The notes beneath the pieces are model-generated. The model ran no database searches. It was not told the origin of the DNA and worked only from the letters and a program-made list of their open reading frames with translations. Of a DNA stretch of 64,000 bases, positions 3,390-38,238 are shown piece after piece. Source of the stretch: a virus (lineage: Duplodnaviria; Heunggongvirae; Uroviricota; Caudoviricetes); the IMG/VR virus record IMGVR_UViG_2654587772_000002. One strand, 5' to 3'. The position numbers and the translations under genes are program-made. Each line of letters starts with the position of its first letter. The first letter of the stretch is position 1.

Positions 3390-3569
3390 TGTTTTTTAAC
3401 TGCCGATGTTACATTGAGCCTGACCTCTTGCGCCTTGAGGCATTTTCGGTTTATGCTTATCAGGCACCTCAGTAAAACGGGTGCCGGGATTGAGACCCCG
3501 GATAATGCAAAAGGCGACACAGACGCCAAAAGCGTCTTTTTTTGTGTCATGCCATCGCACAGCCATACG

Positions 3570-3700
3570 TAGCGTTTAGCTCAGAGATCAATGGTAGTGC
3601 TGGCTGGGCTGCCGAAAGGCAGGCCGGTTCCCTTTTGCGCCGGTAGTCTCAACCCAGTCAGTGCTACCGCCATTGAGATTGAGACCTCACGCGGTAGCTC
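3570..3700 (+). ncRNA. Candidate c4-type antisense RNA (structured, tRNA-like leader) upstream of icd-ant
   Basis: Non-coding stretch with extended internal complementarity (ATCAATGGTAGTGCTGG vs CAGTGCTACCGCCATTGAG) and a segment (CAATGGTAGT) complementary to the icd leader/SD region (GCTGCCATTG); position matches the c4-icd-ant arrangement of P1 immI. Confidence 0.3.
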
Positions 3701-24241: not shown

Positions 24242-25516
24242 ACGGCAAACATTCCCAATTCACAGAGTCCGACCTAAACCACATGAAGCGGCTTAGGAAT
24301 TACAGACTCTCCAAGGGCTAACACTGCCAGCCCGGCAGCTTTTATATTACGGGCCGCGTTAATATCACGATCATGCTCTGCGCCACATTCCGGGCAGTGC
24401 CATTTACGAATATTAAGAGGCATTTTTTGCATGGTGAAGCCGCAACTGCTGCAACGTTTGGAAGAAGGGAAATACTGGTCGATAGCGACAATGCTACGTC
24501 CACCCCATTCTCCTTTGTACTGGAGTTGGCGTACAAGTTCGCTCCAGCCTGCGTCAGCTATTGCTTTAGACAGCTTCGGGTTACGGATCATGTTTTTCAC
24601 TTTAAGGGATTCGACGCAAACAACTTGGTTTTCGTTAATCAGTTTGCGGGACAACTTATGCAGGTTATCCATCCGACAATCGACTATTCTCGCGTGGAGG
24701 CGGGCAACCTTTAAACGTGCTTTGGCGCGGTTCTTTGAGCCTTTTTGTTTCTTGCTCAATCTGCGCTGTAACACTGCTAATCGCTTCGCGTATTTAGCGT
24801 TGTGTCGAGGATTGCCAGTTTTAAAACCGGTATCGGTGACGAACAAATCTTTTAAACCAATATCAATGCCGACCGTGGAAACGGTGATCGGCAGTGATAC
24901 AGGCTCAAACTCGCAGAGACAGGATACAAAATATCGTCCGGCAGCATCCCTGGTGATAGTGACAGTGGATGGAGCAGACGGCAACGGACGGCTCCAGCGA
25001 ACATCTAACGGCTCTTTGCTCTTTGCCATGTACAGCTTGCCGTCACGGTATTTAAATGCGCTGGCAGTTAGTTCTGCGGCCTGTTTATGCCGCTTGCTCT
25101 TAAAAACTGGGTATGCAGCACGCCCGGCGAAAAAGTTAGCAAAAGCCGTTTGTTGGTGGCGCAGAGACTGCTGGAGGGGGACGCAGGAAACGTCATTCAG
25201 CCAAGCGAATTCTGGTTCTTTTTTCAGTGCCGTTAATTTGGCGCTGGCTTGTGCATAGCCGACCCTCTCATGGCGTGCGTAGTACGCATCGGTGCGCCAG
25301 CGAAGGAGGCTGTTATAGACAAAACGCACACACCCAAAAGTCCGGGCTAATAGCTCGGTTTGTTCGGGAGTTGGATAGAATCGATATTTATAGGCACGCT
25401 TCATGTTCTATATAATACATTGAAACTAATGAGTATATAAATGAATACACGGACGAAAATGTTATCAAAGCCAATATACCAACAGACATTAGGTAAGGTA
25501 GCTGGAGGGCAATATA
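24242..25516 (-). mobile_element. IS200/IS605-family tnpB-only element (IS1341-type) inserted between portal and protease genes
   Basis: Intact TnpB ORF fills the intergenic space; no tnpA; boundaries approximate. Confidence 0.55.
24274..25404 (-). CDS. tnpB: TnpB (OrfB) RNA-guided endonuclease-like transposase accessory protein (376 aa)
   Basis: N-terminal MKRAYKYRFYPTPEQ, RuvC-like core and C-terminal zinc finger CSSCG...CPECG. Confidence 0.85.
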   Translation of the reverse strand: MKRAYKYRFYPTPEQTELLARTFGCVRFVYNSLLRWRTDAYYARHERVGYAQASAKLTALKKEPEFAWLNDVSCVPLQQSLRHQQTAFANFFAGRAAYPVFKSKRHKQAAELTASAFKYRDGKLYMAKSKEPLDVRWSRPLPSAPSTVTITRDAAGRYFVSCLCEFEPVSLPITVSTVGIDIGLKDLFVTDTGFKTGNPRHNAKYAKRLAVLQRRLSKKQKGSKNRAKARLKVARLHARIVDCRMDNLHKLSRKLINENQVVCVESLKVKNMIRNPKLSKAIADAGWSELVRQLQYKGEWGGRSIVAIDQYFPSSKRCSSCGFTMQKMPLNIRKWHCPECGAEHDRDINAARNIKAAGLAVLALGESVIPKPLHVV

Positions 25517-26536
25517 ATGACTGATGTTTTGAAAACGGTCACTGACCGCTTTTGTCTCTATAGCAATGCTCGAAAAGGTCGCCAGAACGGGCGACAGTAT
25601 GTATTAAGCGCGGTTAAGACCATGCTTGAAAGCAAGGAAACTCAGGAAGGTTTACGCCTTGGAGAGCTTTTCGGCTATTACGGTCACGGTCGCCGACAGC
25701 TGACCGGCAAACTGGAAGTACCAGAAACCAGCGTAATCATGGTGGAAGGTCGCCCGGTCGTAATCGACAATGTTCCAGCGTGCCGCACAGTGGCTATATC
25801 CGTTGACGACAACGGCATCGTTACCCATACACAGGAAATTCTTAACACAGAGCCGGGTAAAATTGTCGCCGCGATGATCGAAAGCCGAGCTGGTGGCTGG
25901 AGCTGGGCCACTGGCGGGCGTGAGTCCGGGAAAATCGCTGTAACCACCAGCTTCCATGGTGTGGATTATGTGACAACGCCGAACTATATCAGTCTGGATC
26001 ATCCTGCCAGCGCCGGAATGTTTGAAAGCGCGGATTCTAAATCTTTACTGGCAGAGTCCCTGGCGGCGCATGGGTACTCCGACGAGTCAGTGCAGGCCGT
26101 TATATCCCATTACGGCAAAATGGCTGAACTGGAAATGATGGTGGAGGCGACAGAGCGTACGGCAGAACTGGAAACTGCACTACTCGAAAGCCAGGGCCGC
26201 CACCTCGAAGCAATGGCCAAGATCGCAGATGCTGAAGCGCGAATCGCTTTGCTGGAGGAAACAGCGGGTATCCGCGACGATGTGCTGGCAGCAATGCAAG
26301 ACGAACTGGATAACCTCCCGATCTTCGTCTCCGCCGCCCAAAAAGACGCATTCCGCCTCAAAGAACCTGGTGATGCAAAAATCGTTGCCACACTTTTCGA
26401 ATCTCTGATCAAAGTTGGCGCACGCAACTTGCCTGTCACCAAGAAAATTAAGGAGGTTCCGCAAGCGGCTAACGTCCAGGCACCGCGTGAGACAAGCATC
26501 ATCACGTTTAATAATTCAATCAATCCGTTTAAATAA
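25517..26536 (+). CDS. Head processing protease Pro-like (339 aa)
   Basis: Synteny with P1 pro. Confidence 0.5.
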   Translation: MTDVLKTVTDRFCLYSNARKGRQNGRQYVLSAVKTMLESKETQEGLRLGELFGYYGHGRRQLTGKLEVPETSVIMVEGRPVVIDNVPACRTVAISVDDNGIVTHTQEILNTEPGKIVAAMIESRAGGWSWATGGRESGKIAVTTSFHGVDYVTTPNYISLDHPASAGMFESADSKSLLAESLAAHGYSDESVQAVISHYGKMAELEMMVEATERTAELETALLESQGRHLEAMAKIADAEARIALLEETAGIRDDVLAAMQDELDNLPIFVSAAQKDAFRLKEPGDAKIVATLFESLIKVGARNLPVTKKIKEVPQAANVQAPRETSIITFNNSINPFK

Positions 26537-26580: not shown

Positions 26581-26835
26581 TTATCGCCTTCGTGCCATAT
26601 ATTTGCGCACCGCGCGGCGTGGACAATCTGAAGCGGTTTCTTTCTGCTGCATCAATCTCGCAGCCATGCTCAAAAATGTCAGGCACAGCCGAAGCCCGGC
26701 ATACAATAGCGGTTCCAGTGGCCACGTCTCATTGAGCACATATACCGCCATGAAAATCGAGTCAAAAACTATCGCCGCCAGCGATAACTTCATTGTCGAA
26801 AGTCGGCGGAGCTGCCGGAGTTTATTCATTGACAA
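26581..26835 (-). CDS. Small two-TM membrane protein immediately downstream of lyz (possible lysis accessory protein)
   Basis: Two hydrophobic segments and basic C-terminus; overlaps lyz 3' end; could also start at internal Met (26793). Confidence 0.3.
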   Translation of the reverse strand: MSMNKLRQLRRLSTMKLSLAAIVFDSIFMAVYVLNETWPLEPLLYAGLRLCLTFLSMAARLMQQKETASDCPRRAVRKYMARRR

Positions 26836-27379
26836 GCCCCGTCAGGCAAAGCTGGCGTTCTTTTTCACGGCGAATCTTTAAACCTCGCAGGGGCACGCCG
26901 TTACTGTTCACGAAATCAGGGAGATGGTTACACATATTCACCCATTCCCCTTTCTGCGCCCACTTGTGGATGGACGTTTCTACTCGCATGCCTCGCGCTT
27001 TGCTGTAGTAGGTCCGTAAGCTATTGCATCCCATATTGAATGCCGCGCTTGTCATTGCACTGAAGGCATTATCGGGCATGTCTTTGCCCCGGAAGTGCTG
27101 ATTAATACAGCGTTCAGCGATCAGGATATTCTTTTCCCAATCAGCGGCGATTTGCTGGTCGGTTTTTCGCACACCCGGCGTTACCCCGTGTGTATTACCG
27201 ATCCCGTCAGTCCATACCCCCGCCGGGCACATGTATGGATCACGTCGGCAACCTTCAGCGTTACCAATCTGCTCAAGCCCCGCCTGGTTGGTTCGCACAT
27301 TGCCATTACCCATCACGATGGTAATCATCACCGCGATAGCGCAAATTGCACCGCCTCCTGCGGCTGTTTTTCCCTTCAT
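26822..27379 (-). CDS. lyz: SAR-type endolysin Lyz (T4 lysozyme fold), ~185 aa from ATG 27379
   Basis: N-terminal hydrophobic SAR segment MKGKTAAGGGAICAIAVMITIVMGNG; SD GAGG 7 nt upstream; ORF track N-extension rejected. Confidence 0.8.
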   Translation of the reverse strand: MKGKTAAGGGAICAIAVMITIVMGNGNVRTNQAGLEQIGNAEGCRRDPYMCPAGVWTDGIGNTHGVTPGVRKTDQQIAADWEKNILIAERCINQHFRGKDMPDNAFSAMTSAAFNMGCNSLRTYYSKARGMRVETSIHKWAQKGEWVNMCNHLPDFVNSNGVPLRGLKIRREKERQLCLTGLVNE

Positions 27380-27512
27380 AAAGACCTCATAAGCGAATTT
27401 TTTACGCTCCAGGACAAACACCCATTCACAGCCAATACCGACTGACTCGATCCCTTTAGAAGGCACAGGATAATGCAAATCACTTGTTAGCTACGTTTCA
27501 AAGATATACATT

Positions 27513-27529
27513 ATTGCTCTAATTAATTT
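27513..27529 (+). promoter_or_regulatory. C1 operator (ATTGCTCTAATTAATTT) upstream of ssb
   Basis: Consensus match 20 nt upstream of ssb start. Confidence 0.55.
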
Positions 27530-27548: not shown

Positions 27549-28037
27549 GTGGCACAACGCGGTGTAAACAAAGTCATCCTGATTGGTACCCTGGGGCAAG
27601 ACCCGGAGATCAGGTATATACCAAATGGCGGAGCGGTCGGAAGACTCAGCATCGCAACGAATGAATCATGGCGCGACAAGCAAACTGGCCAACAGAAAGA
27701 GCAAACAGAATGGCATAAAGTCGTTTTGTTCGGAAAACTTGCTGAAATTGCGAGTGAATATTTACGAAAAGGTTCTCAGGTCTACATCGAAGGGAAACTT
27801 AAAACCCGTAAGTGGACAGATGACGCCGGTGTAGAACGTTACACGACGGAAATTATCGTCAGCCAGGGCGGCACCATGCAAATGATCGGCGCTCGCCGTG
27901 ACGATTCACAGTCCTCAAATGGCTGGAGGCAATCAAACCAACCTCAAAACCACCAGCAATACAGCGGTGGCGGTAAACCTCAGAGCAACGCCAATAACGA
28001 ACCTCCAATGGACTTTGACGACGATATTCCGTTTTGA
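27549..28037 (+). CDS. ssb: Single-stranded DNA-binding protein (162 aa)
   Basis: Near-identity in pattern to E. coli SSB N-terminus ([23 protein letters not shown]...) and acidic DDDIPF tail. Confidence 0.95.
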
Positions 28038-28234
28038 ATGTGTAAAAAACGACTGAAAGAAAAGCGGTGGTCCAAACGCCAACAAAAGCACGAACTCGCT
28101 AAAAAACGCCAAAGTTGGCAATGGCACGCGCTTTTCACGAAAAGAACACCCCGAGATATTGCTTTCGCTGGTGGGAAAACATTCCTGACCCACCTGAAGG
28201 CGCAATACATCAGGTTTTAAGCAGAGGAAAGACT

Positions 28235-28912
28235 ATGAATAACATGACAACGAAAGAGCTTTTGACGGCACTTCCAAAATACAAAAGCCATAAAACAGTT
28301 CGTGCCTCAAAAATCAAAGATATCGAAATTATCGCCCTAATGGATGTGGTCCTTCTTTGCAACATCGAAGTCGTTGAGCCAGAAGGGGTAAAAGTCCATG
28401 TTGATAAAATGTTTTTGCAAAAACACCGACCAGAAATTGGCGGATATCTGGTCGCTTACGAGGACGGATCTCTGTCCTATTCACCAGAAAAAACATTTGA
28501 AGAAGGCTTTAGTCGGACTAACGACTTCTTCGAAAATGGGGTATCGCTCAGCATTGAAGGTCACAACGGGGTGACATTCATTACAGCCAAGGACGTAACT
28601 ATTTCTGCTGGCGGTATCGCTACTCTACAAGAAGAAATCGACCTTGAAGCAGCCGACTTTTCTGACGCGCTGATGTGGCTGAAGGATGGCAAGAAAGTTG
28701 CTCGACGCGGGTGGAACGGCGAAAACCAATTCTGCTGGCTGGTTCCTGAAGGACAGTACCCGGCACGAATGGAAGCCATTAAGGGATATTTCCCCGGCGA
28801 CCTCGTTCCGTATGGTGCTTATTTCGCCTTAAAAAATGCACAAGGTGTAGTTGTTCCGTGGGTTCCTTCTGTAGGCGACTTACTGGCATGTGACTGGTTT
28901 GTAGTGGAGTGA
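28235..28912 (+). CDS. Two-domain protein: unknown N-domain + C-terminal DUF2829-like (Tad2-like) domain
   Basis: C-terminal ~85 aa ALMWLKDGKKVARRGWNG...PWVPSVGDLLACDWFVVE matches my recollection of the DUF2829 signature; start chosen at ATG 28235 with SD. Confidence 0.5.
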   Translation: MNNMTTKELLTALPKYKSHKTVRASKIKDIEIIALMDVVLLCNIEVVEPEGVKVHVDKMFLQKHRPEIGGYLVAYEDGSLSYSPEKTFEEGFSRTNDFFENGVSLSIEGHNGVTFITAKDVTISAGGIATLQEEIDLEAADFSDALMWLKDGKKVARRGWNGENQFCWLVPEGQYPARMEAIKGYFPGDLVPYGAYFALKNAQGVVVPWVPSVGDLLACDWFVVE

Positions 28913-28918
28913 TTTAAC

Positions 28919-29707
28919 GTGGAAAATACTAAAGCAATTCAATACCGCCTGCGTAATGGCCAGAGTGTCGAAGTGACCATCAATAATGATGGTGTACCTG
29001 GCGAAAAGGTTTCTATCTCTGATCTGGCTATCGAAAAAACCATCATGTGCCACCTTGGCTTTACTGAAGAAGTGAGCAAAAAGCATGGTGTAGCTATCTG
29101 GCGAACAATGGATACTGGCATGCGCAGATTCATTACCGCTCGTACCCCAGGTATGACCATGATGGACCTCATGCAGATTGCGCCGCTGTTTGAGTGTGAA
29201 CCTTTGGATGTATTCAGCAATCCAGCTATCTGCCAGCAGTTATATGGTGAGATGAAACTCGCGGTTACCCCCATTGTGCTGCATGAAGGATCGCTTGCTG
29301 GCGTATGGAAAGTAGAGCGAATTTCAAGCTATATGCCCTTCCACATCCATGTCAACGGCGTAATCGCAGGTGAAAATCAACCTGTTTCAGTTACAAAGTC
29401 AGACCTCAAGCGCGCAATTCTTGAAGCAAGTTGTCGAGTTATCGGCCTGGGCAAACAGTCTTATGTTTTCTTCCCGGCTGGCCCTGAAGGCCCGGCAGAA
29501 ATTCTGATTATGGATGCCGATCTGCTCTGGCAAATACAGTTTCTGATTGGCAAAAGCATCATCCGCGCTGAAGAACTCGATCAGTACATTACCTGCACGA
29601 TGACGGATGAAGTCAAAAGTGTGGCTATAGCCAATGCCCGGAACCTATGTCGTGCTGCATTAACAGAACTGCAAGAAAACACCACGGAAGAAGTGGAAAG
29701 CGATTAA
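28919..29707 (+). CDS. Hypothetical protein (262 aa)
   Basis: ORF, GTG start 6 nt after previous stop, followed by hairpin terminator. Confidence 0.45.
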   Translation: MENTKAIQYRLRNGQSVEVTINNDGVPGEKVSISDLAIEKTIMCHLGFTEEVSKKHGVAIWRTMDTGMRRFITARTPGMTMMDLMQIAPLFECEPLDVFSNPAICQQLYGEMKLAVTPIVLHEGSLAGVWKVERISSYMPFHIHVNGVIAGENQPVSVTKSDLKRAILEASCRVIGLGKQSYVFFPAGPEGPAEILIMDADLLWQIQFLIGKSIIRAEELDQYITCTMTDEVKSVAIANARNLCRAALTELQENTTEEVESD

Positions 29708-29710
29708 AAA

Positions 29711-29734
29711 AAATCCCGCCGATTGGCGGGATTT
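29711..29734. terminator. Bidirectional hairpin terminator AAATCCCGCC-GATT-GGCGGGATTT
   Basis: 10-bp perfect stem flanked by A-run and T-run. Confidence 0.7.
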
Positions 29735-29736
29735 CT

Positions 29737-30045
29737 TCAATATACGATCTGGTCTACATGATCACCAAAATCATCGTCGTCGTCCTCATCGCCACCATCT
29801 ACTGCTGGCCAATCAACAAACCAGCCAGCGTAAAGATGCAGCGTTCGGAGAACATCACTTGCGGGAGCATCAAGGGTGTTAACGAATCCCATATAGCTAT
29901 TGGGATTTGCTCCAGCTATGGCTTCAGCGATCATGTCCTCGGTAATGTCACCGGAGATAATGCTTAAACGCCCGGAAACTTCTTCATTATCATCAAATTC
30001 GATAATGGCATCTCCGCCTAATGGCGCTGCGATTTTAATCTGCAT
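29737..30045 (-). CDS. Hypothetical acidic protein (102 aa), last gene of dar operon
   Basis: Start overlaps ddrB stop; poly-Asp C-terminal region. Confidence 0.45.
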   Translation of the reverse strand: MQIKIAAPLGGDAIIEFDDNEEVSGRLSIISGDITEDMIAEAIAGANPNSYMGFVNTLDAPASDVLRTLHLYAGWFVDWPAVDGGDEDDDDDFGDHVDQIVY

Positions 30046-33022
30046 TATTTAGCTCCTTTGCCACACCTAATAACAGTTCCAGCAATCCGTCACCATTCAT
30101 CAGTGATGCGGCAGCGGCCTCTTTGTCATGATACAACTGAAGAGCCATAGAGAACACTTCCGTTGCTGACGTTTTGGAAATTGTCGGAGATTTGTGTCGA
30201 AATTTACCAGAATTACTCACTGAGACAGGCGGGTATACCTTCGCCATATAAATATCACTCAATCGAGATCTGAAGCACCATTCAGGCTTGCCACGCCCAC
30301 CGATATTAACGAAAGATGGCTTATCCCCTTCAACATTGGCCTTCAGGAATGACCTGGCTTTCTCTAACAAACCCGGGTTACTGTACTCAAGATGATGACC
30401 CAGCTCGTGCCACAGTGCATTTGCATTTTCATCGTGCAAATCGACAGCAACAACACCATTAAGATTTGCATACGCCCTACCCTTGTGGTGAATTACCCTT
30501 GATAAGGTTGATATTTTCCCGCCGGTCAGGCGATAAATATCAGCAAGTTCCTTGCGCAGGTCTATTCCACCATTCTGTCCAGCGCGGGCTTCTTCCACTT
30601 CTTCCGTGATAAAAGAGTCGGCCCACTCAAGAGCTTTTTCTTCTGATACGGATGAGTTGGTGATCGCACTGTTCATGGCAGATAACACTTTCTCGTAGAC
30701 CGAATCCATACTTCGCTGATTCATTTGCCAGCGTTTCTGCGGGATATATGAAAATCGATTGAGTAGCTGGTCAAGCTGCTCAAGTTCTTCTTCACTGACA
30801 TGCTTTTTAGCCTCACCAATAATGCTGGGGAGAATAATGCCGTTAGGATTAAACGCTCGCGAAAGGAAGAGTTTCAGCGCCCCCATGCCCTCCGATGCTT
30901 CAATATCACCAATAACACGGTTAACAATGGCCGCATTCTTCGGATTAACGTCCTCCAACGCCCTAGCTACGATTTGCAGGGACGATACGACCTCACGCTG
31001 CATATCCGTCCTGATCTCATCAATTAACTCTGGCGTTATGCCGTGCTCTTTAAGGATATCCCGGCCTTCCGCCGTTACCCCATCGATATCACCGACATGT
31101 TTATTAACACGACTTTGCAATGCCTTAAATGCCTTCAGAATTCCACGGGCATCATCCGCTTTACTAACGGCCTTCCTGAATGCTGGCAAGAAGTCTGAGT
31201 TAACCTCATTTTGTTGATCGGCCCACTGAATGGAGGCTTCCTTCATCTCGTCCAGAGTCAGATCACCCAACGCGGTATGGTCTGTGAATATGAGCGATAA
31301 CCTCTGAACCATTTCTGCCAATGGTGATACTGATTGCGCCGCGCTAAGGAATGCTTTCACCCTGGTTGGGCGAATGGAAAACCAGTCAATAGCTGGTGGC
31401 ATATCTCCGTTTTGTATCGCCTGCGCTATCTCATCAAAGCCGTCGCGCCCAAGGGAGGATGCGTGATTTAACAATCCGCGAAGTAACGAATTGCTGATAC
31501 CGAATAATCGGCACCATTTATTCACGTCGGCAACAGGCATTCGAACAAAATGCGCAAGCACTTGTACAAGCTGTTCATCCTGGGGATCTCTACGGGAAAG
31601 CAGCCTTATCAGATGAATAATGTCTTTGATGCCGGATGACCGATGTAATAGCAAGCTGGTATATGGAGCAACACCGTTGTAACTACCGCCGGAAACGGAC
31701 TCGAAAAGACCGCCTGATATCCCTTGCATGCCTTCGTTTTCCAGTTCCTGAGACACCTGGCGAAGGATATCCTGTAACGACACATCACCACCGCCAAACA
31801 TATCCCCCAGCGCCTGGCCCTGGTGCTGTAACTCATCATTGATACGTTGAGCCATCAATTTAAAGGCGGTGGCCATACGCTTCGCGCTACGGTTATTCGC
31901 GACGATGAACAACGCGAGAGCTTTCACTTCCGGGGCTGTTTCGCTGAACATATCCCCCTGAGCAATGACATCGGTAATATGCTGGCCTGACTCCTTCGAT
32001 TGCCTTACCAGGTCTACCGCATCTTTCAATGCCGCCAGCGCCTTTTTATCGAGGCTATCCGCTGTCTCAATGCCATCAACAATAGTTGTCACAGCCTGCT
32101 TGTGCGCTTCTCCTGATAAAGCCTGCATCTGGACAAAATCATTGGCTGCCGCATTAAGCGCCGTCAGAACATTACGCATATCCGGATCAGGTTCTTCTGC
32201 AACCATCCTTACCAGGCGCGCATCCTTATATGCCTTGGCAAAGATCGCGTTTTGTATACGGTCTACAAGTTGCCGCGTTGGTCGCCCATCTTCCGTTACA
32301 AGGCCAGCAGCCTGTGTGGCACCAACTTGCGTCATGAATCCGCGAATAAACGCGTCATTACTGCGGCTAAGCAGATCTCCACTTTCTGACGGGTTAAACA
32401 ACGCCATCATCGCCGGTGTTATGCTGTCGGCATCAACAAAAGCCTTTTCACTGGCTGCCATTTCCTGGAGATCAGAAATATTTGAGTCCTTGGCAAACTG
32501 AACACGGTCAGCCTTCGTTAACCGGCGGCGCACCAGTACCGGAGCCGTCATTGATTCAACCTTTTCAGGCCGTATGCCGAATTCGGTCGCATGTTCAATC
32601 AGGTACTCCCGATACCGATCCGCATTACCGTCCTGATAGGCTTTAATGATCCCCATGGTCCGCCCATTACCTGACTCAACGGCATTGTCCTCACCAATTA
32701 TTGGCGCGCCATGGCTGGATAAACCGGAATCGGTAAGCTGGGCAGGACGCAAATCCTTGGATATCTGGTTGACCTGAAGAAGGCTGGATGCGCGGGTCCG
32801 GTCGCGCGGCTGAAGTTCCTGGGGATAGTCTGGATTAATTTTCCCATCCAGAGTATTGGATACCAAAAGAACTGAGGCATCGACGATATCAAACGCTGTT
32901 TTTACCTCGTCTCCCTTCGCTGTCACCACATACGAAACCCGCCCGTAATCGGGCAGGTTTTTTAGCAGCTCGATCAGCGTTTCTATGCTGGTGGCCATCA
33001 CCACCTGATCGCTTAAGCTCAT
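30035..33022 (-). CDS. ddrB: DdrB-like antirestriction-associated virion protein (995 aa)
   Basis: Size and position downstream of darA-ddrA. Confidence 0.55.
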   Translation of the reverse strand: MSLSDQVVMATSIETLIELLKNLPDYGRVSYVVTAKGDEVKTAFDIVDASVLLVSNTLDGKINPDYPQELQPRDRTRASSLLQVNQISKDLRPAQLTDSGLSSHGAPIIGEDNAVESGNGRTMGIIKAYQDGNADRYREYLIEHATEFGIRPEKVESMTAPVLVRRRLTKADRVQFAKDSNISDLQEMAASEKAFVDADSITPAMMALFNPSESGDLLSRSNDAFIRGFMTQVGATQAAGLVTEDGRPTRQLVDRIQNAIFAKAYKDARLVRMVAEEPDPDMRNVLTALNAAANDFVQMQALSGEAHKQAVTTIVDGIETADSLDKKALAALKDAVDLVRQSKESGQHITDVIAQGDMFSETAPEVKALALFIVANNRSAKRMATAFKLMAQRINDELQHQGQALGDMFGGGDVSLQDILRQVSQELENEGMQGISGGLFESVSGGSYNGVAPYTSLLLHRSSGIKDIIHLIRLLSRRDPQDEQLVQVLAHFVRMPVADVNKWCRLFGISNSLLRGLLNHASSLGRDGFDEIAQAIQNGDMPPAIDWFSIRPTRVKAFLSAAQSVSPLAEMVQRLSLIFTDHTALGDLTLDEMKEASIQWADQQNEVNSDFLPAFRKAVSKADDARGILKAFKALQSRVNKHVGDIDGVTAEGRDILKEHGITPELIDEIRTDMQREVVSSLQIVARALEDVNPKNAAIVNRVIGDIEASEGMGALKLFLSRAFNPNGIILPSIIGEAKKHVSEEELEQLDQLLNRFSYIPQKRWQMNQRSMDSVYEKVLSAMNSAITNSSVSEEKALEWADSFITEEVEEARAGQNGGIDLRKELADIYRLTGGKISTLSRVIHHKGRAYANLNGVVAVDLHDENANALWHELGHHLEYSNPGLLEKARSFLKANVEGDKPSFVNIGGRGKPEWCFRSRLSDIYMAKVYPPVSVSNSGKFRHKSPTISKTSATEVFSMALQLYHDKEAAAASLMNGDGLLELLLGVAKELNNAD

Positions 33023-36778: not shown

Positions 36779-37600
36779 GTGCGCCCAGCATGGGCGCGAT
36801 CTTGGAGGTGAAAGCCCTCCCGCGAGCTGACCACAGCGAGCGAAAGGAAGTGCAACTGCGTGAGGGCGGCTAGGCGTGGGGAGGAAGCACGGAATGAACC
36901 CGTGAGCCGATGAACAAGAATCGGATATGAGGCGCGATGGAGCAAGGCGAGCAGGCACATCACTGCGAAGCTTTCGTGACAAAGTCGCGTAGATCCGACG
37001 GTTGTGCGGGGAAGGATCGCGTTCTTACCTGGGGAGTTCTCGCCTCATGCCTGAAAGGGCAACGTCGTAAGACGGAGCGAGAAGTCAGCAGAGGCCGTAG
37101 TAGTCAGGACTCCGACGAAGGGCCGAACGAGAAGGAAAGCCAAAAGATATGACTCTTGACAGGACATTGCGTCAGAAGCCGGGGAAGCCCGGTACGGACC
37201 CGCATGCCGGGTGGTGTGGCAGGGGCGCAGCCTTGTGCTCCCCCCTATGCCGATCAAGCAGAACATTGTGCTGGGCCTCTGACGCATCTCCTTGATGGTC
37301 TTGGCATCGTGCTTAAGTGGATTGGTGTCGTCTCTGATAGGCTCATGGAGGCAGAATGAAACTCAAAAATCCGGGACAGCACGCAAAACAGGCTGCACAA
37401 AAAGCGCAGGTTGCGTAGGAGTGGAATCCCGCTCCCAAAAAATGGTGCAGAAGTTGCGGCAGTGGTCATCCGACGCACTGGAAAATAACAAACCCGCCGT
37501 GACCAGAATCGGAGGCCTGAGGGAGTGACCGTAAAACCGGATAACCCAGGCAGCAAATACCCGCTGGATGAGGCATGGTTCCGGCAGATAATACCGAAAA
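36779..37600 (+). ncRNA. GC-rich non-coding block with group II intron-like 5' end (GTGCGCCCAG), preceded by a perfect hairpin (36746-36777); possibly ORF-less or degenerate intron or other large structured RNA
   Basis: No credible ORF on either strand across ~0.9 kb; 5' end resembles the Ll.LtrB intron start as I recall it; many GNRA-type tetraloop motifs; 3' boundary and domain V not identified. Confidence 0.3.
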
Positions 37601-37674: not shown

Positions 37675-38238
37675 ATGCTGAATAATAGAGACATGAATAT
37701 TAATGAACTTAAAGACTGTATTCACTATGAAGTAATCGGTAGCGAGCGTCCTTTCTCCTGGCGAAAGGCAATTGTTCGCGCAATAAAACATAGAAGAGTT
37801 CGTTATTTATTTTGGTGGCGCATAGCCAAATACCTTTTTGATAAAGGCGGATACTGTCGGAAGATTGCGGGGAAAATGGAACGTTTCATTCTTGATAAAT
37901 ATAGTGTAACAGTCCCTTTAACTGTAAATATAGGGAAAGGCTTTGATATTTCTTATCTCAACGGTGTTGTTATCGGTCACAAAGTAACCATTGGTGAAAA
38001 TTGTTCAATAAAACCAGGGGTAACTATTGGGCTACGTGGTGATTTTAATGATATGGATATTGTTATAGGACATAATGTGACCATTGGTTGTAATGCCACC
38101 ATTCTTGGTGGCAAAGTGCGTATAGGAAACAATGTCACAATAGGTGCTCATGCATTGGTATTGCATGATATTCCTGATGATTCAACATTCATCACTAAAT
38201 TTCAGTCTGAAGTTATCTGCTCGTCCTCTTGCACATAA
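37675..38238 (+). CDS. Hexapeptide-repeat (left-handed beta-helix) O-acetyltransferase, CysE/WbbJ-like (187 aa)
   Basis: Tandem hexapeptide repeats ([21 protein letters not shown]...[32 protein letters not shown]); AT-rich. Confidence 0.7.

Follow-up and report, generated by a model that had tools for sequence, protein, structure and literature searches.

The gene at positions 28235-28912 (+ strand) of the window, by which we mean the whole 64,000-nucleotide stretch of DNA analysed here, from a P1-like phage-plasmid (Caudoviricetes), probably encodes an anti-defence protein of two modules, a Tad2 sponge that would be made early and, joined to it, an OB-fold unit. The 225-aa product carries at its C-terminus a domain of the Tad2-like family (PF11195, formerly DUF2829). 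New here is the recognition that its N-terminal OB-fold is, on the evidence of profile comparisons, homologous to the phage decoration protein Dec and belongs to a large family for which there is no Pfam model; and that the recognisable partners of this OB family are mostly known sponges.

On the map the gene falls between ssb on one side and the Dar/Ddr antirestriction operon on the other, as a preliminary description of the region had proposed. The upstream flank, ssb (27549-28037, + strand), matches PF00436 (E=6.6e-40) and is identified as P1 ssb by synteny and identity; the other flank, ddrB (30035-33022, - strand, 995 aa), was assigned through the ddrB-ParB family PF18763 (E=6.5e-39) and the P1 annotation (Lobocka et al. 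2004; NC_005856). The three open reading frames between them were found exactly where they had been placed: the Tad2-like fusion gene, isaA (28919-29707, + strand, 262 aa, with a GTG start) and hxr (29737-30045, - strand, 102 aa; Hxr in P1, OdaA in P7). The true start of the Tad2-like gene is likely to be the ATG at 28235, because it is preceded by a good Shine-Dalgarno sequence, AGAGGAAAG, and because the longer upstream extension is broken by a TAA at 28100. This stop codon falls in a 197-bp leader (28038-28234, + strand) between ssb and the Tad2-like gene, which is conserved in an alignment of the window, P1 and Salmonella phage SJ46, and which is annotated as coding in the latter two, as the N-terminus of IsaA in P1 and of gp048 in SJ46.

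A scan of this spacer revealed no sigma-70-like promoter and no + strand terminator, and an Rfam search of 27-30 kb, leader included, gave no match. Upstream of ssb, the C1 repressor operator Ossb (Op21; 27513-27529, + strand) is identical base for base to that of P1 and overlaps the ssb promoters, and in alignment the operator and the ssb promoter region are the same as in P1. Ossb is a monovalent C1-controlled operator in the P1 annotation, and here it is the probable control point for ssb and for the genes downstream, which would be co-transcribed. The Tad2-like gene, directly 3' of ssb, would then stand under a C1-repressed promoter, and from this promoter and the position after ssb early production would be expected, as soon as repression of the element is lifted or it has entered a cell.

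The gene next in line, isaA, is the conserved partner of the Tad2-like gene. Its product had been described as of no recognisable family; this holds for Pfam and NCBIfam, neither of which gave a match, but the protein is the P1 IsaA homologue, 96% identical over 261 aa to residues 60-320 of P1 IsaA (gp017). It matches phrog_2326 (E=7e-151), and its gene sits between ssb and hxr. In P1 itself, IS1 and isaB lie between isaA and hxr, whereas both are absent from the window. The IsaA family is narrow, with 21 clusters confined to P1/D6-like elements, and no match was found among PDB sequences. The AF2 model, built on a 6-sequence alignment, is poor (mean pLDDT 55.8, confident at residues 35-115 only), and a Foldseek search with it returned no match below E=0.29.

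The 102-aa protein is 98% identical to P1 Hxr and belongs to phrog_2292, and the possibility that the two proteins were simply the ordinary P1 isaA and isaB homologues thus proved half right, one being IsaA and the other Hxr. Hxr is very acidic (pI 4.05; 23 D/E against 3 K/R), and its gene had been said to be coupled to ddrB. The two reading frames do overlap, by 11 nt; hxr is translationally coupled to ddrB and is part of the ddr/dar operon, outside the Tad2 cassette. A database label that makes Hxr an Xre homologue or repressor found no support: neither a helix-turn-helix nor a match to any other family was detected in searches of Pfam (E<=1), NCBIfam (E<=0.01) or PDB sequences, and the protein is strongly acidic. 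Apart from the conserved pairing of the Tad2-like gene with isaA, nothing was found that ties IsaA or Hxr to anti-defence.

The assignment of the C-terminal segment to DUF2829 and Tad2 was borne out by HMM, by sequence and by fold, and the anti-defence reading of the fusion gene is a reasonable one. The domain comprises residues 136-225 (28640-28912 with the stop codon, + strand), of which residues 141-224 match PF11195 with a score of 80.3 bits (gathering cut-off, 25 bits) and E=1.6e-22, over positions 2-73 of the 73-position profile. It has an N-terminal helix, an antiparallel beta-sheet and short helices in the beta2-beta3 and beta4-beta5 loops, as the Tad2 fold demands. The best match among PDB sequences is ModTad2, from a Myroides odoratus prophage (PDB 8V3E, apo, and 9EIB, with His-ADPR; E=6e-21, 44% identity), with HgmTad2/AcrIIA7 and SPO1 Tad2 ranking lower; the alignment to ModTad2 is collinear save for one single-residue gap, in the beta2-beta3 insertion. 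ModTad2, which sequesters His-ADPR and cUMP/cCMP, is a stand-alone protein of 88 aa, whereas the 225-aa window protein has an extra N-terminal OB-fold and linker. SPO1 Tad2 (Gp34.65; PDB 8SME, 8SMF and 8SMG), the founder of PF11195, shares its fold with the window domain (Foldseek E ~1e-6) at 36% identity; it too is stand-alone, and its ligand is 1''-3' gcADPR. It has F44 where the window protein and ModTad2 have a longer beta2-beta3 insertion, and two stacked F44 residues block the second pocket of SPO1 Tad2.

In SPO1 Tad2 the riboses and phosphates of the ligand are held by W25, N26, W73, S76 and D79, which align with W160, N161, W209, S212 and D215 of the window protein. W160, W209, S212 and D215 are invariant in an alignment of 42 family members; N161 is not among the conserved positions, and is replaced by K in short-loop alleles. 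The adenine-side contacts I63, T65, D67, H71 and T78 correspond here to L199, N201, Q203, V207 and G214, which are also unlike the residues of ModTad2 (pocket-lining positions, window/ModTad2: N201/T, Q203/D, V207/A, G214/S). Because the adenine side differs from both proteins, the ligand cannot be read from the sequence. The domain may fall in the ModTad2-type subgroup (type II Thoeris, His-ADPR), in which an extended beta2-beta3 insertion opens the second pocket: ModTad2 is its best match and the insertion is collinear, but TmoTad2 and CcaTad2, the other type II inhibitors, are only 36-39% identical to it. Judged by its sequence, the domain is a divergent member of the family, with unusual pocket-side residues and an allelic loop.

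Known Tad2 specificities extend over type I, II and IV Thoeris, Pycsar and CBASS, and, as a point against the sponge reading, roughly one in four of the sponge homologues in the largest survey inhibited none of the seven systems tried. A protein with the Tad2 fold might have a target other than an immune signal, whether as an AcrIIA7-type anti-CRISPR or by binding a housekeeping nucleotide, or it might bind the signal of some undescribed defence system. We regard this group of explanations as unlikely here, given that the ribose and phosphate residues of the pocket are conserved and that homologues are found next to signal sponges or fused with them. As for the anti-CRISPR version in particular, AcrIIA7 was never demonstrated to bind Cas9, and its family is now interpreted as one of sponges. 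E. coli and Salmonella are moreover not known to carry type II-A CRISPR.

The N-terminal region of about 140 aa was correctly described at the outset as unrelated to the Tad2 domain. It consists of an OB-fold (residues 1-96; 28235-28522, + strand) with the motif PxYKxHKxVxAxKI ... KHxPEIGGY[YL]VxYxDGYxS[YF]SPxxAFExGY, and a linker or 'stalk' (residues 97-135; 28523-28639, + strand) that is strand-prone and has pLDDT <50 in the monomer model. When a profile of this region was compared with the PDB, the sole match was the phage L decoration protein Dec (PDB 6E3C; PMC6449081), with E=1.1e-7 over profile positions 13-122 and Dec residues 14-121. The hhalign probability for the OB domain against Dec is 95.4%, and among structural OB-fold matches Dec alone also shares sequence identity, at 27-28%; the motif PE-GGYL ... 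FE--Y is common to both. The profile alignment enters the start of the Dec spike region (to residue 121), where the hhalign alignment, which ends with the OB-fold, does not follow. After the OB-fold, both proteins continue with a strand-prone segment that lacks order in the monomer, and in Dec residues 90-134 remain disordered until the protein has trimerised (PMC6449081).

It might be supposed from this likeness that the protein is virion-associated, the OB-fold binding the capsid lattice, residues 97-135 forming a trimeric spike and the Tad2-like head being displayed upon it; it might then have an extracellular nucleotide or sugar as its ligand, or be carried along with the virion. The exclusive profile match to Dec would be in keeping with such a role, as would a segment 97-135 left unmodelled in the monomer, and the gene also adjoins dar/ddr genes, whose products are head-internal proteins. 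We nevertheless consider a virion role highly improbable. Dec is a late structural protein with a C-terminal trimeric spike, whereas the window protein ends in a Tad2 domain and its gene apparently belongs to the early, C1-controlled ssb unit rather than to a late morphogenetic operon. Homology detected by hhalign covers only the OB part. The linker is itself allelic, with two main sequence types in the family; in distant relatives it is replaced by helices or extra domains, or omitted, and phage D6 has dropped most of the OB domain but kept the stalk and Tad2. Many cytoplasmic anti-defence domains have the OB domain as a fusion partner, and it is often found alone, as a protein of 80-100 aa without a stalk; and a sponge on the capsid exterior would not get into the cell. 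Trimer symmetry is, finally, at odds with a Tad2 tetramer. The same clash, between a Dec-like trimeric stalk and the tetramer, would count against the sponge reading too.

The OB family comprises 5191 cluster representatives. A Pfam partner domain is present in 16 of the 114 multi-domain members that were scanned, and in 12 of these 16 the partner is a sponge (Sequestin in five, Acb4 in three, Tad2 in three and Acb2/Tad1 in one); one further member bears the T7 Gp5.9 RecBCD inhibitor. A protein of 4188 aa (P0181), in which an exhaustive search found 28 short matching stretches, was set aside as a repeat artefact.

Fused sponges have precedents. Acb4-Tad2 of Pasteurella phage Pm86 works, and Sequestin, a new sponge family, was predicted from its fusion to Tad2 (both bioRxiv 10.1101/2025.07.12.664507). 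In Acb4-Tad2 and Tad2-Sequestin, as in the window protein, Tad2 is combined in one polypeptide with a second small phage module; the second module of the window protein differs in being an OB-fold without a Pfam model and, unlike Acb4 or Sequestin, is not a known sponge. True Tad2-Sequestin fusions occur among the relatives of the window protein (P0061 and P0105), and in one temperate phage, within the early region, a gene for an Acb2/Tad1-hairpin sponge is directly followed by that of a 55%-identical homologue. An apparent dUTPase-Tad2 fusion (P0056) was discarded as a separate architecture, being accounted for by the adjoining dUTPase and DUF2829 genes of D6-like elements. The same preprint screened only Pfam-annotated partners (bioRxiv 10.1101/2025.07.12.664507), which places the OB-Tad2 architecture outside its screen. 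None of the supplementary sequences of a preprint on sponge diversity matches the window protein. Literature searches turned up no experimental study of the protein or of its close relatives.

By the logic that led to Sequestin, a domain fused to Tad2 or Acb4 is probably a sponge. The OB domain fits the same pattern, being short, phage-specific, common as a stand-alone protein and joined in fusions to Gp5.9 and to members of four sponge families, and on this pattern it is a candidate additional anti-defence module. A bolder proposal, which we put forward only tentatively and hold to be rather less probable than its negation, is that the OB-fold itself represents a new and very large family of phage anti-defence modules, missed so far for want of a Pfam model and acting either as a further sponge or as a general partner by which sponges are assembled or targeted. 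Both halves of the window protein would in that case serve anti-defence, and Dec would be a structural offshoot of the same domain. The OB domain seems not to be Lockin, a second new sponge from the 2025 preprint, which is described as a curved, elongated and mostly beta hexamer: fold searches of the PDB with the OB domain gave no such entry.

The architecture had initially been called novel, which in sequence space it is not: it is already present in SJ46, in which the whole region, including the Tad2-like gene (gp048), is 97.8% identical in DNA to the window; on 229 plasmids in PLSDB, 193 of them with an intact full-length copy; in phrog_872, which matches the fusion protein over its entire length; and in more than 100 protein clusters. 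Screening with DefenseFinder had already reported Tad2 in 56% of P1-like phage-plasmids and in 93% of the D6-like ones (bioRxiv 10.1101/2025.09.12.675607). A further new observation is that the Tad2-like gene and isaA form a two-gene cassette in both kinds of element, and D6 has the pairing at a different genome position. P1 has no Tad2-like open reading frame, the same ribosome-binding site and ATG leading there straight into isaA, and in P7 the porin gene nmpC occupies its place. That P1 manages without the gene is an observation that weighs against the sponge reading, as is the ability of P1 to form plaques without isaA and hxr.

Such variability could also mean that the gene is a decaying or neutral passenger, accessory cargo that linkage alone maintains within a variable region prone to recombination. 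The absence from P1 and the substitution in P7 agree with this, as do the internal deletion in the D6 copy, the many truncated or frameshifted copies in databases, and the fact that P1 can dispense with both isaA and hxr. What makes it, in our estimate, the least probable of the explanations is the nature of what has been retained: the intact copies on those 193 plasmids, four of the five pocket residues invariant across 42 diverse members, and a Tad2 domain that stays ~80-98% identical to that of the window while its N-terminal partners are swapped. A conserved pocket combined with swapped partners argues for purifying selection on the Tad2 domain and its repeated re-use, not for decay. Domains and loop segments are mosaic and allelic across the family, and between the window and D6 the Tad2-domain DNA is 97% identical, against only 49% protein identity for the adjoining IsaA; together, mosaic alleles and this contrast are, at the level of sequence, the signature of an arms race.

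The reading that we favour, and hold to be reasonably probable, is accordingly of an early-expressed sponge for TIR-derived, ADP-ribose-based signals, with no one ligand predicted. From homology to SPO1 Tad2, HgmTad2 and ModTad2, the C-terminal 90 residues would be expected to form a homotetramer of two V-shaped dimers with pockets at the subunit interfaces, and these pockets to bind and sequester the signals made by TIR enzymes of Thoeris (such as His-ADPR or gcADPR). Cyclic nucleotides may also be bound, in the second pocket present in some Tad2 proteins. With its signal sequestered, the host effector would stay off. The Dec-like OB-fold of 96 residues is most likely either a second, independent anti-defence or ligand-binding unit, or an assembly unit, as suggested by the occurrence of the module alone and in fusion to other sponges.

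Pathogenic E. coli, Shigella and Salmonella widely harbour P1-like phage-plasmids, which bear resistance and virulence genes; to know which host defences these elements disarm helps to account for the range of their hosts and for their persistence. Time and again, sponges have been the tool by which new immune nucleotides were found, and with its unusual pocket and allelic loop the Tad2 domain described here could prove to bind a signal to which no sponge has so far been matched. Of the two modules, its OB-fold partner is the more valuable lead.

The window derives from a P1-like phage-plasmid (Punavirus), a nature confirmed by adjacent Rfam matches to isrK (58 bits) and the C4 antisense RNA (75 bits) at 3464-3674 (+), the P1 immI (c4-icd-ant) immunity region. 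Between 27500 and 30100 it shares 97.8% identity with Salmonella phage SJ46 and, where P1 has counterpart sequence, about 97% with P1. The three open reading frames of the preliminary description were found at 28235-28912 (+), 28919-29707 (+) and 29737-30045 (-), and Pfam matches confirmed the flanking genes as ssb (27549-28037, +; PF00436) and ddrB (30035-33022, -; PF18763). The first frame encodes a Tad2-like fusion protein of 225 amino acids. A longer frame, beginning upstream, is annotated in SJ46 and P1; because a TAA at 28100 interrupts it in the window, and the ATG at 28235 is preceded by a good ribosome-binding site, the short form is taken to be the real gene. The 197-bp spacer between ssb and this gene (28038-28234, +) is annotated as coding in P1 and SJ46, where it extends isaA or gp048 at the N-terminus. 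Searches of it for a promoter, a + strand terminator or an Rfam family found none, and this apparently non-coding leader is strongly conserved (some 97-99% among the window, P1 and SJ46).

[quoted passage not shown] ModTad2, encoded by a Myroides odoratus prophage, is the closest relative of solved structure (E=6e-21, 44% identity), the alignment being collinear across the beta2-beta3 insertion save for one single-residue gap; HgmTad2/AcrIIA7 and then SPO1 Tad2 are next best. In an AlphaFold2 model based on 42 homologues the domain has a pLDDT of about 85-92, and Foldseek matches the predicted fold to ModTad2 with bound His-ADPR (9EIB; E=6.5e-9, target TM 0.75-0.88). The residues W25, N26, W73, S76 and D79 that hold the ligand in SPO1 Tad2 (bioRxiv 10.1101/2023.05.01.538930) align with W160, N161, W209, S212 and D215. 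Four of these, W160, W209, S212 and D215, are invariant across the family alignment; N161 is not among the listed conserved positions, and short-loop alleles carry K there. Given the HMM match, the structural-model match and the conserved pocket residues, family membership is secure, and sequestration of a signal is the most likely mechanism to predict for the domain.

On the adenine side the pocket differs from those of SPO1 Tad2 and ModTad2: I63, T65, D67, H71 and T78 of SPO1 Tad2 correspond to L199, N201, Q203, V207 and G214 in the window protein, and these are also unlike the residues of ModTad2. Ligands vary within the family, from gcADPR for SPO1 Tad2, His-ADPR and (in a second pocket) cUMP/cCMP for ModTad2, to cyclic dinucleotides for HgmTad2 and N7-cADPR for Tad2_71. 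Among all tested sponge homologues (Acb2, Tad1 and Tad2 pooled), about a quarter inhibit none of seven systems.

The N-terminal region, described earlier as unrelated to the Tad2 domain, is indeed distinct. Residues 5-95 are modelled confidently (pLDDT 82-92) as an OB-fold homologous to Dec, the decoration protein of phage L; residues 97-135 are not confidently modelled. When a profile of 21 N-terminal regions was compared with the PDB, Dec was found at E=1.1e-7 and the next match at E=0.39. Comparison with Dec by hhalign gave 95.4% probability for the OB part only, the first ten Dec residues falling beyond the alignment or at its margin. The segment that follows the OB-fold of Dec has no ordered structure as a monomer and trimerises into a spike on the capsid (PMC6449081). 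The unmodelled, strand-prone segment 97-135 is reminiscent of this, although the hhalign support is confined to the OB part. The fusion partner of the Tad2 domain is a Dec-related OB-fold. Where the Tad2 domain starts (28628-28690, residues ~132-152), the junction EIDL(E/D)AADFSDALMWLKEGK is nearly invariant among the homologues P0054-P0120, and is kept even in those with other N-terminal modules and only 31-45% overall identity; stand-alone Tad2 proteins have F-G-x-A-L-E in its place. It may mark a joint left by recombination, or else something that fused forms require structurally.

An exhaustive HMMER search with a profile of the window OB domain and 14 stand-alone relatives yielded 5191 representatives of 50%-identity clusters at E<=1e-3 (3604 at E<=1e-10), many of them 80-105 residues long and made up of nothing but the domain, which falls in no Pfam, NCBIfam or annotated PHROG family. 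The best 150 matches included 114 longer members, and a Pfam search of these found a partner domain in only 16, namely Sequestin (PF21825) in five, Acb4 (PF13876) in three, Tad2 in three, the Acb2/Tad1 hairpin in one, DUF551 in two, and PP-binding and DUF2158 in one each, so that known sponge families make up 12 of the 16. One further member is fused to the T7 Gp5.9 RecBCD inhibitor. The family is very large, unannotated, phage-borne and preferentially joined to sponges of immune signals. Sequestin was itself discovered through its frequent fusion to Tad2 and Acb4, in work that searched Pfam families only and that showed Acb4-Tad2 fusions to be bifunctional (bioRxiv 10.1101/2025.07.12.664507). 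The same logic makes the OB domain a candidate for an anti-defence module, with a role in assembly or stabilisation just as possible.

The ssb promoters and the C1 operator Ossb match their P1 counterparts at every base and, since no separate promoter or + strand terminator was detected in the spacer, the Tad2-like gene is likely to be expressed with ssb on derepression. Elsewhere, in the early region of one temperate phage, an Acb2/Tad1-hairpin gene is directly followed by a 55%-identical homologue, and the homologue of Klebsiella phage SopranoGao comes after the helix-turn-helix genes of the immunity region. Stand-alone OB genes occur among small early genes, one beside a NinB gene and another among genes of nucleotide metabolism. 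Phage D6 has the same ribosome-binding site and first codons, then the stalk, the Tad2 domain and an isaA homologue, most of the OB domain being deleted. Its DNA is 97% identical to 28591-28961 of the window (the Tad2 domain and the first 43 nt of isaA); the remainder of its IsaA is only 49% identical at the protein level. The cassette stands in a different genome region of D6, where genes for a cre-like recombinase and a dUTPase precede it. The D6 dUTPase gene lies directly 5' of the DUF2829 gene (NC_050154, 2085-3817), and in some E. coli elements a homologue, P0056, is a single 241-residue dUTPase-Tad2 fusion, with a Tad2 part 98% identical to that of the window, which apparently arose by joining of the two neighbouring genes. 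Across the family there are swappable alleles of the OB part, of the stalk and of the beta2-beta3 loop, which has at least four forms, while identity to the window in the core of the Tad2 domain remains at about 80-98%. This mosaic pattern fits recombination-driven diversification of an arms-race gene, and it also shows that isaA and the Tad2-like gene travel as a pair.

The two neighbouring genes had been called unknown, and both proved to be known P1 genes. The 262-residue protein is IsaA (96% identity to P1 IsaA as annotated, over its residues 60-320), and the acidic 102-residue protein is Hxr (98% identity to P1 Hxr; named OdaA in P7). The condition that the preliminary description set for its own refutation, namely that these frames be the ordinary P1 isaA/isaB homologues with no binding of signalling molecules, thus holds by half. 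Knock-down by CRISPRi classed both genes as non-essential for P1 plaque formation (PMC10695390). P1 lacks the Tad2-like frame, the same ribosome-binding site and ATG leading directly into isaA, and has IS1 and isaB, absent from the window, between isaA and hxr. In P7 the outer-membrane porin gene nmpC (NC_050152, 1532-2647) stands where the window has the Tad2-like/isaA cassette and P1 has isaA-IS1-isaB. Since P1, P7 and the window differ in content here, the ssb-hxr interval is a variable locus, a cargo hotspot in P1-like elements.

The coupling of the 102-residue protein to ddrB was confirmed: the start of hxr overlaps the end of ddrB by 11 nt, which makes hxr a member of the ddr/dar operon rather than of the Tad2 cassette. 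Databases label Hxr "possible repressor, homologue of Xre"; Pfam, NCBIfam and PDB sequence searches found no helix-turn-helix or other family match. It is extremely acidic (pI 4.05) and has a run of Asp residues close to its C-terminus. A repressor seems a less plausible reading than a role within Dar/Ddr antirestriction, such as that of a DNA mimic or a chaperone.

Other features of the surrounding sequence were also seen. A 376-residue IS200/IS605-type TnpB RNA-guided endonuclease gene (24274-25404, -; NCBIfam guided_TnpB, E=8e-107) lies immediately upstream of 25517-26536, the counterpart of the P1 head-processing gene pro; the P1 and SJ46 stretches examined have no TnpB gene directly beside pro. 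The lysozyme frame (26822-27478, -) was called mechanically from a putative TTG start, giving 218 residues, whereas P1 Lyz is annotated with 185 (558 nt) and the SJ46 form has 645 nt. Just past the darA/hdf/lyd region, two Rfam group II intron D1-D4 matches (36860-37123, +; RF02001, 95.5 bits; RF01998, 46.8 bits) could be what is left of an intron, or else a split element; no full-length maturase is evident nearby, the nearest long + strand frame (37675-38238) encoding only 187 residues.

The fusion architecture, presented at first as novel, is not rare. The protein matches phrog_872 end to end, and more than 100 related protein clusters are every one named only "DUF2829 domain-containing protein". 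The gene is carried by 229 PLSDB plasmids, of which 193 cover at least 80% of it and one has a copy that is 100% identical; nearly all are 90-100 kb non-mobilisable plasmids of E. coli, Salmonella or Shigella. In a 2025 preprint, DefenseFinder called "Tad2 AcrIIA7 (anti-Thoeris)" in 56% of the P1-like phage-plasmids and in 93% of the D6-like ones (bioRxiv 10.1101/2025.09.12.675607). As an annotation, the Tad2 gene is therefore already known. Literature searches found no experimental work on the fusion protein and no description of its N-terminal part.

Of the anti-defence cluster proposed for this locus, the Tad2-family member stands, while IsaA and Hxr are ordinary P1 genes for which no evidence of such a role was found beyond the conserved pairing of IsaA with the Tad2-like gene. 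The locus is best read as a Tad2-family cassette of P1/D6-type phage-plasmids, common and already flagged by automated tools. We consider it rather probable that the fusion protein is an early-expressed sponge for ADP-ribose-type signals; that the OB domain itself constitutes a new anti-defence family is a tentative and somewhat unlikely proposal. What is added here is the recognition of the fusion partner as a Dec-related OB-fold belonging to a very large unannotated family.
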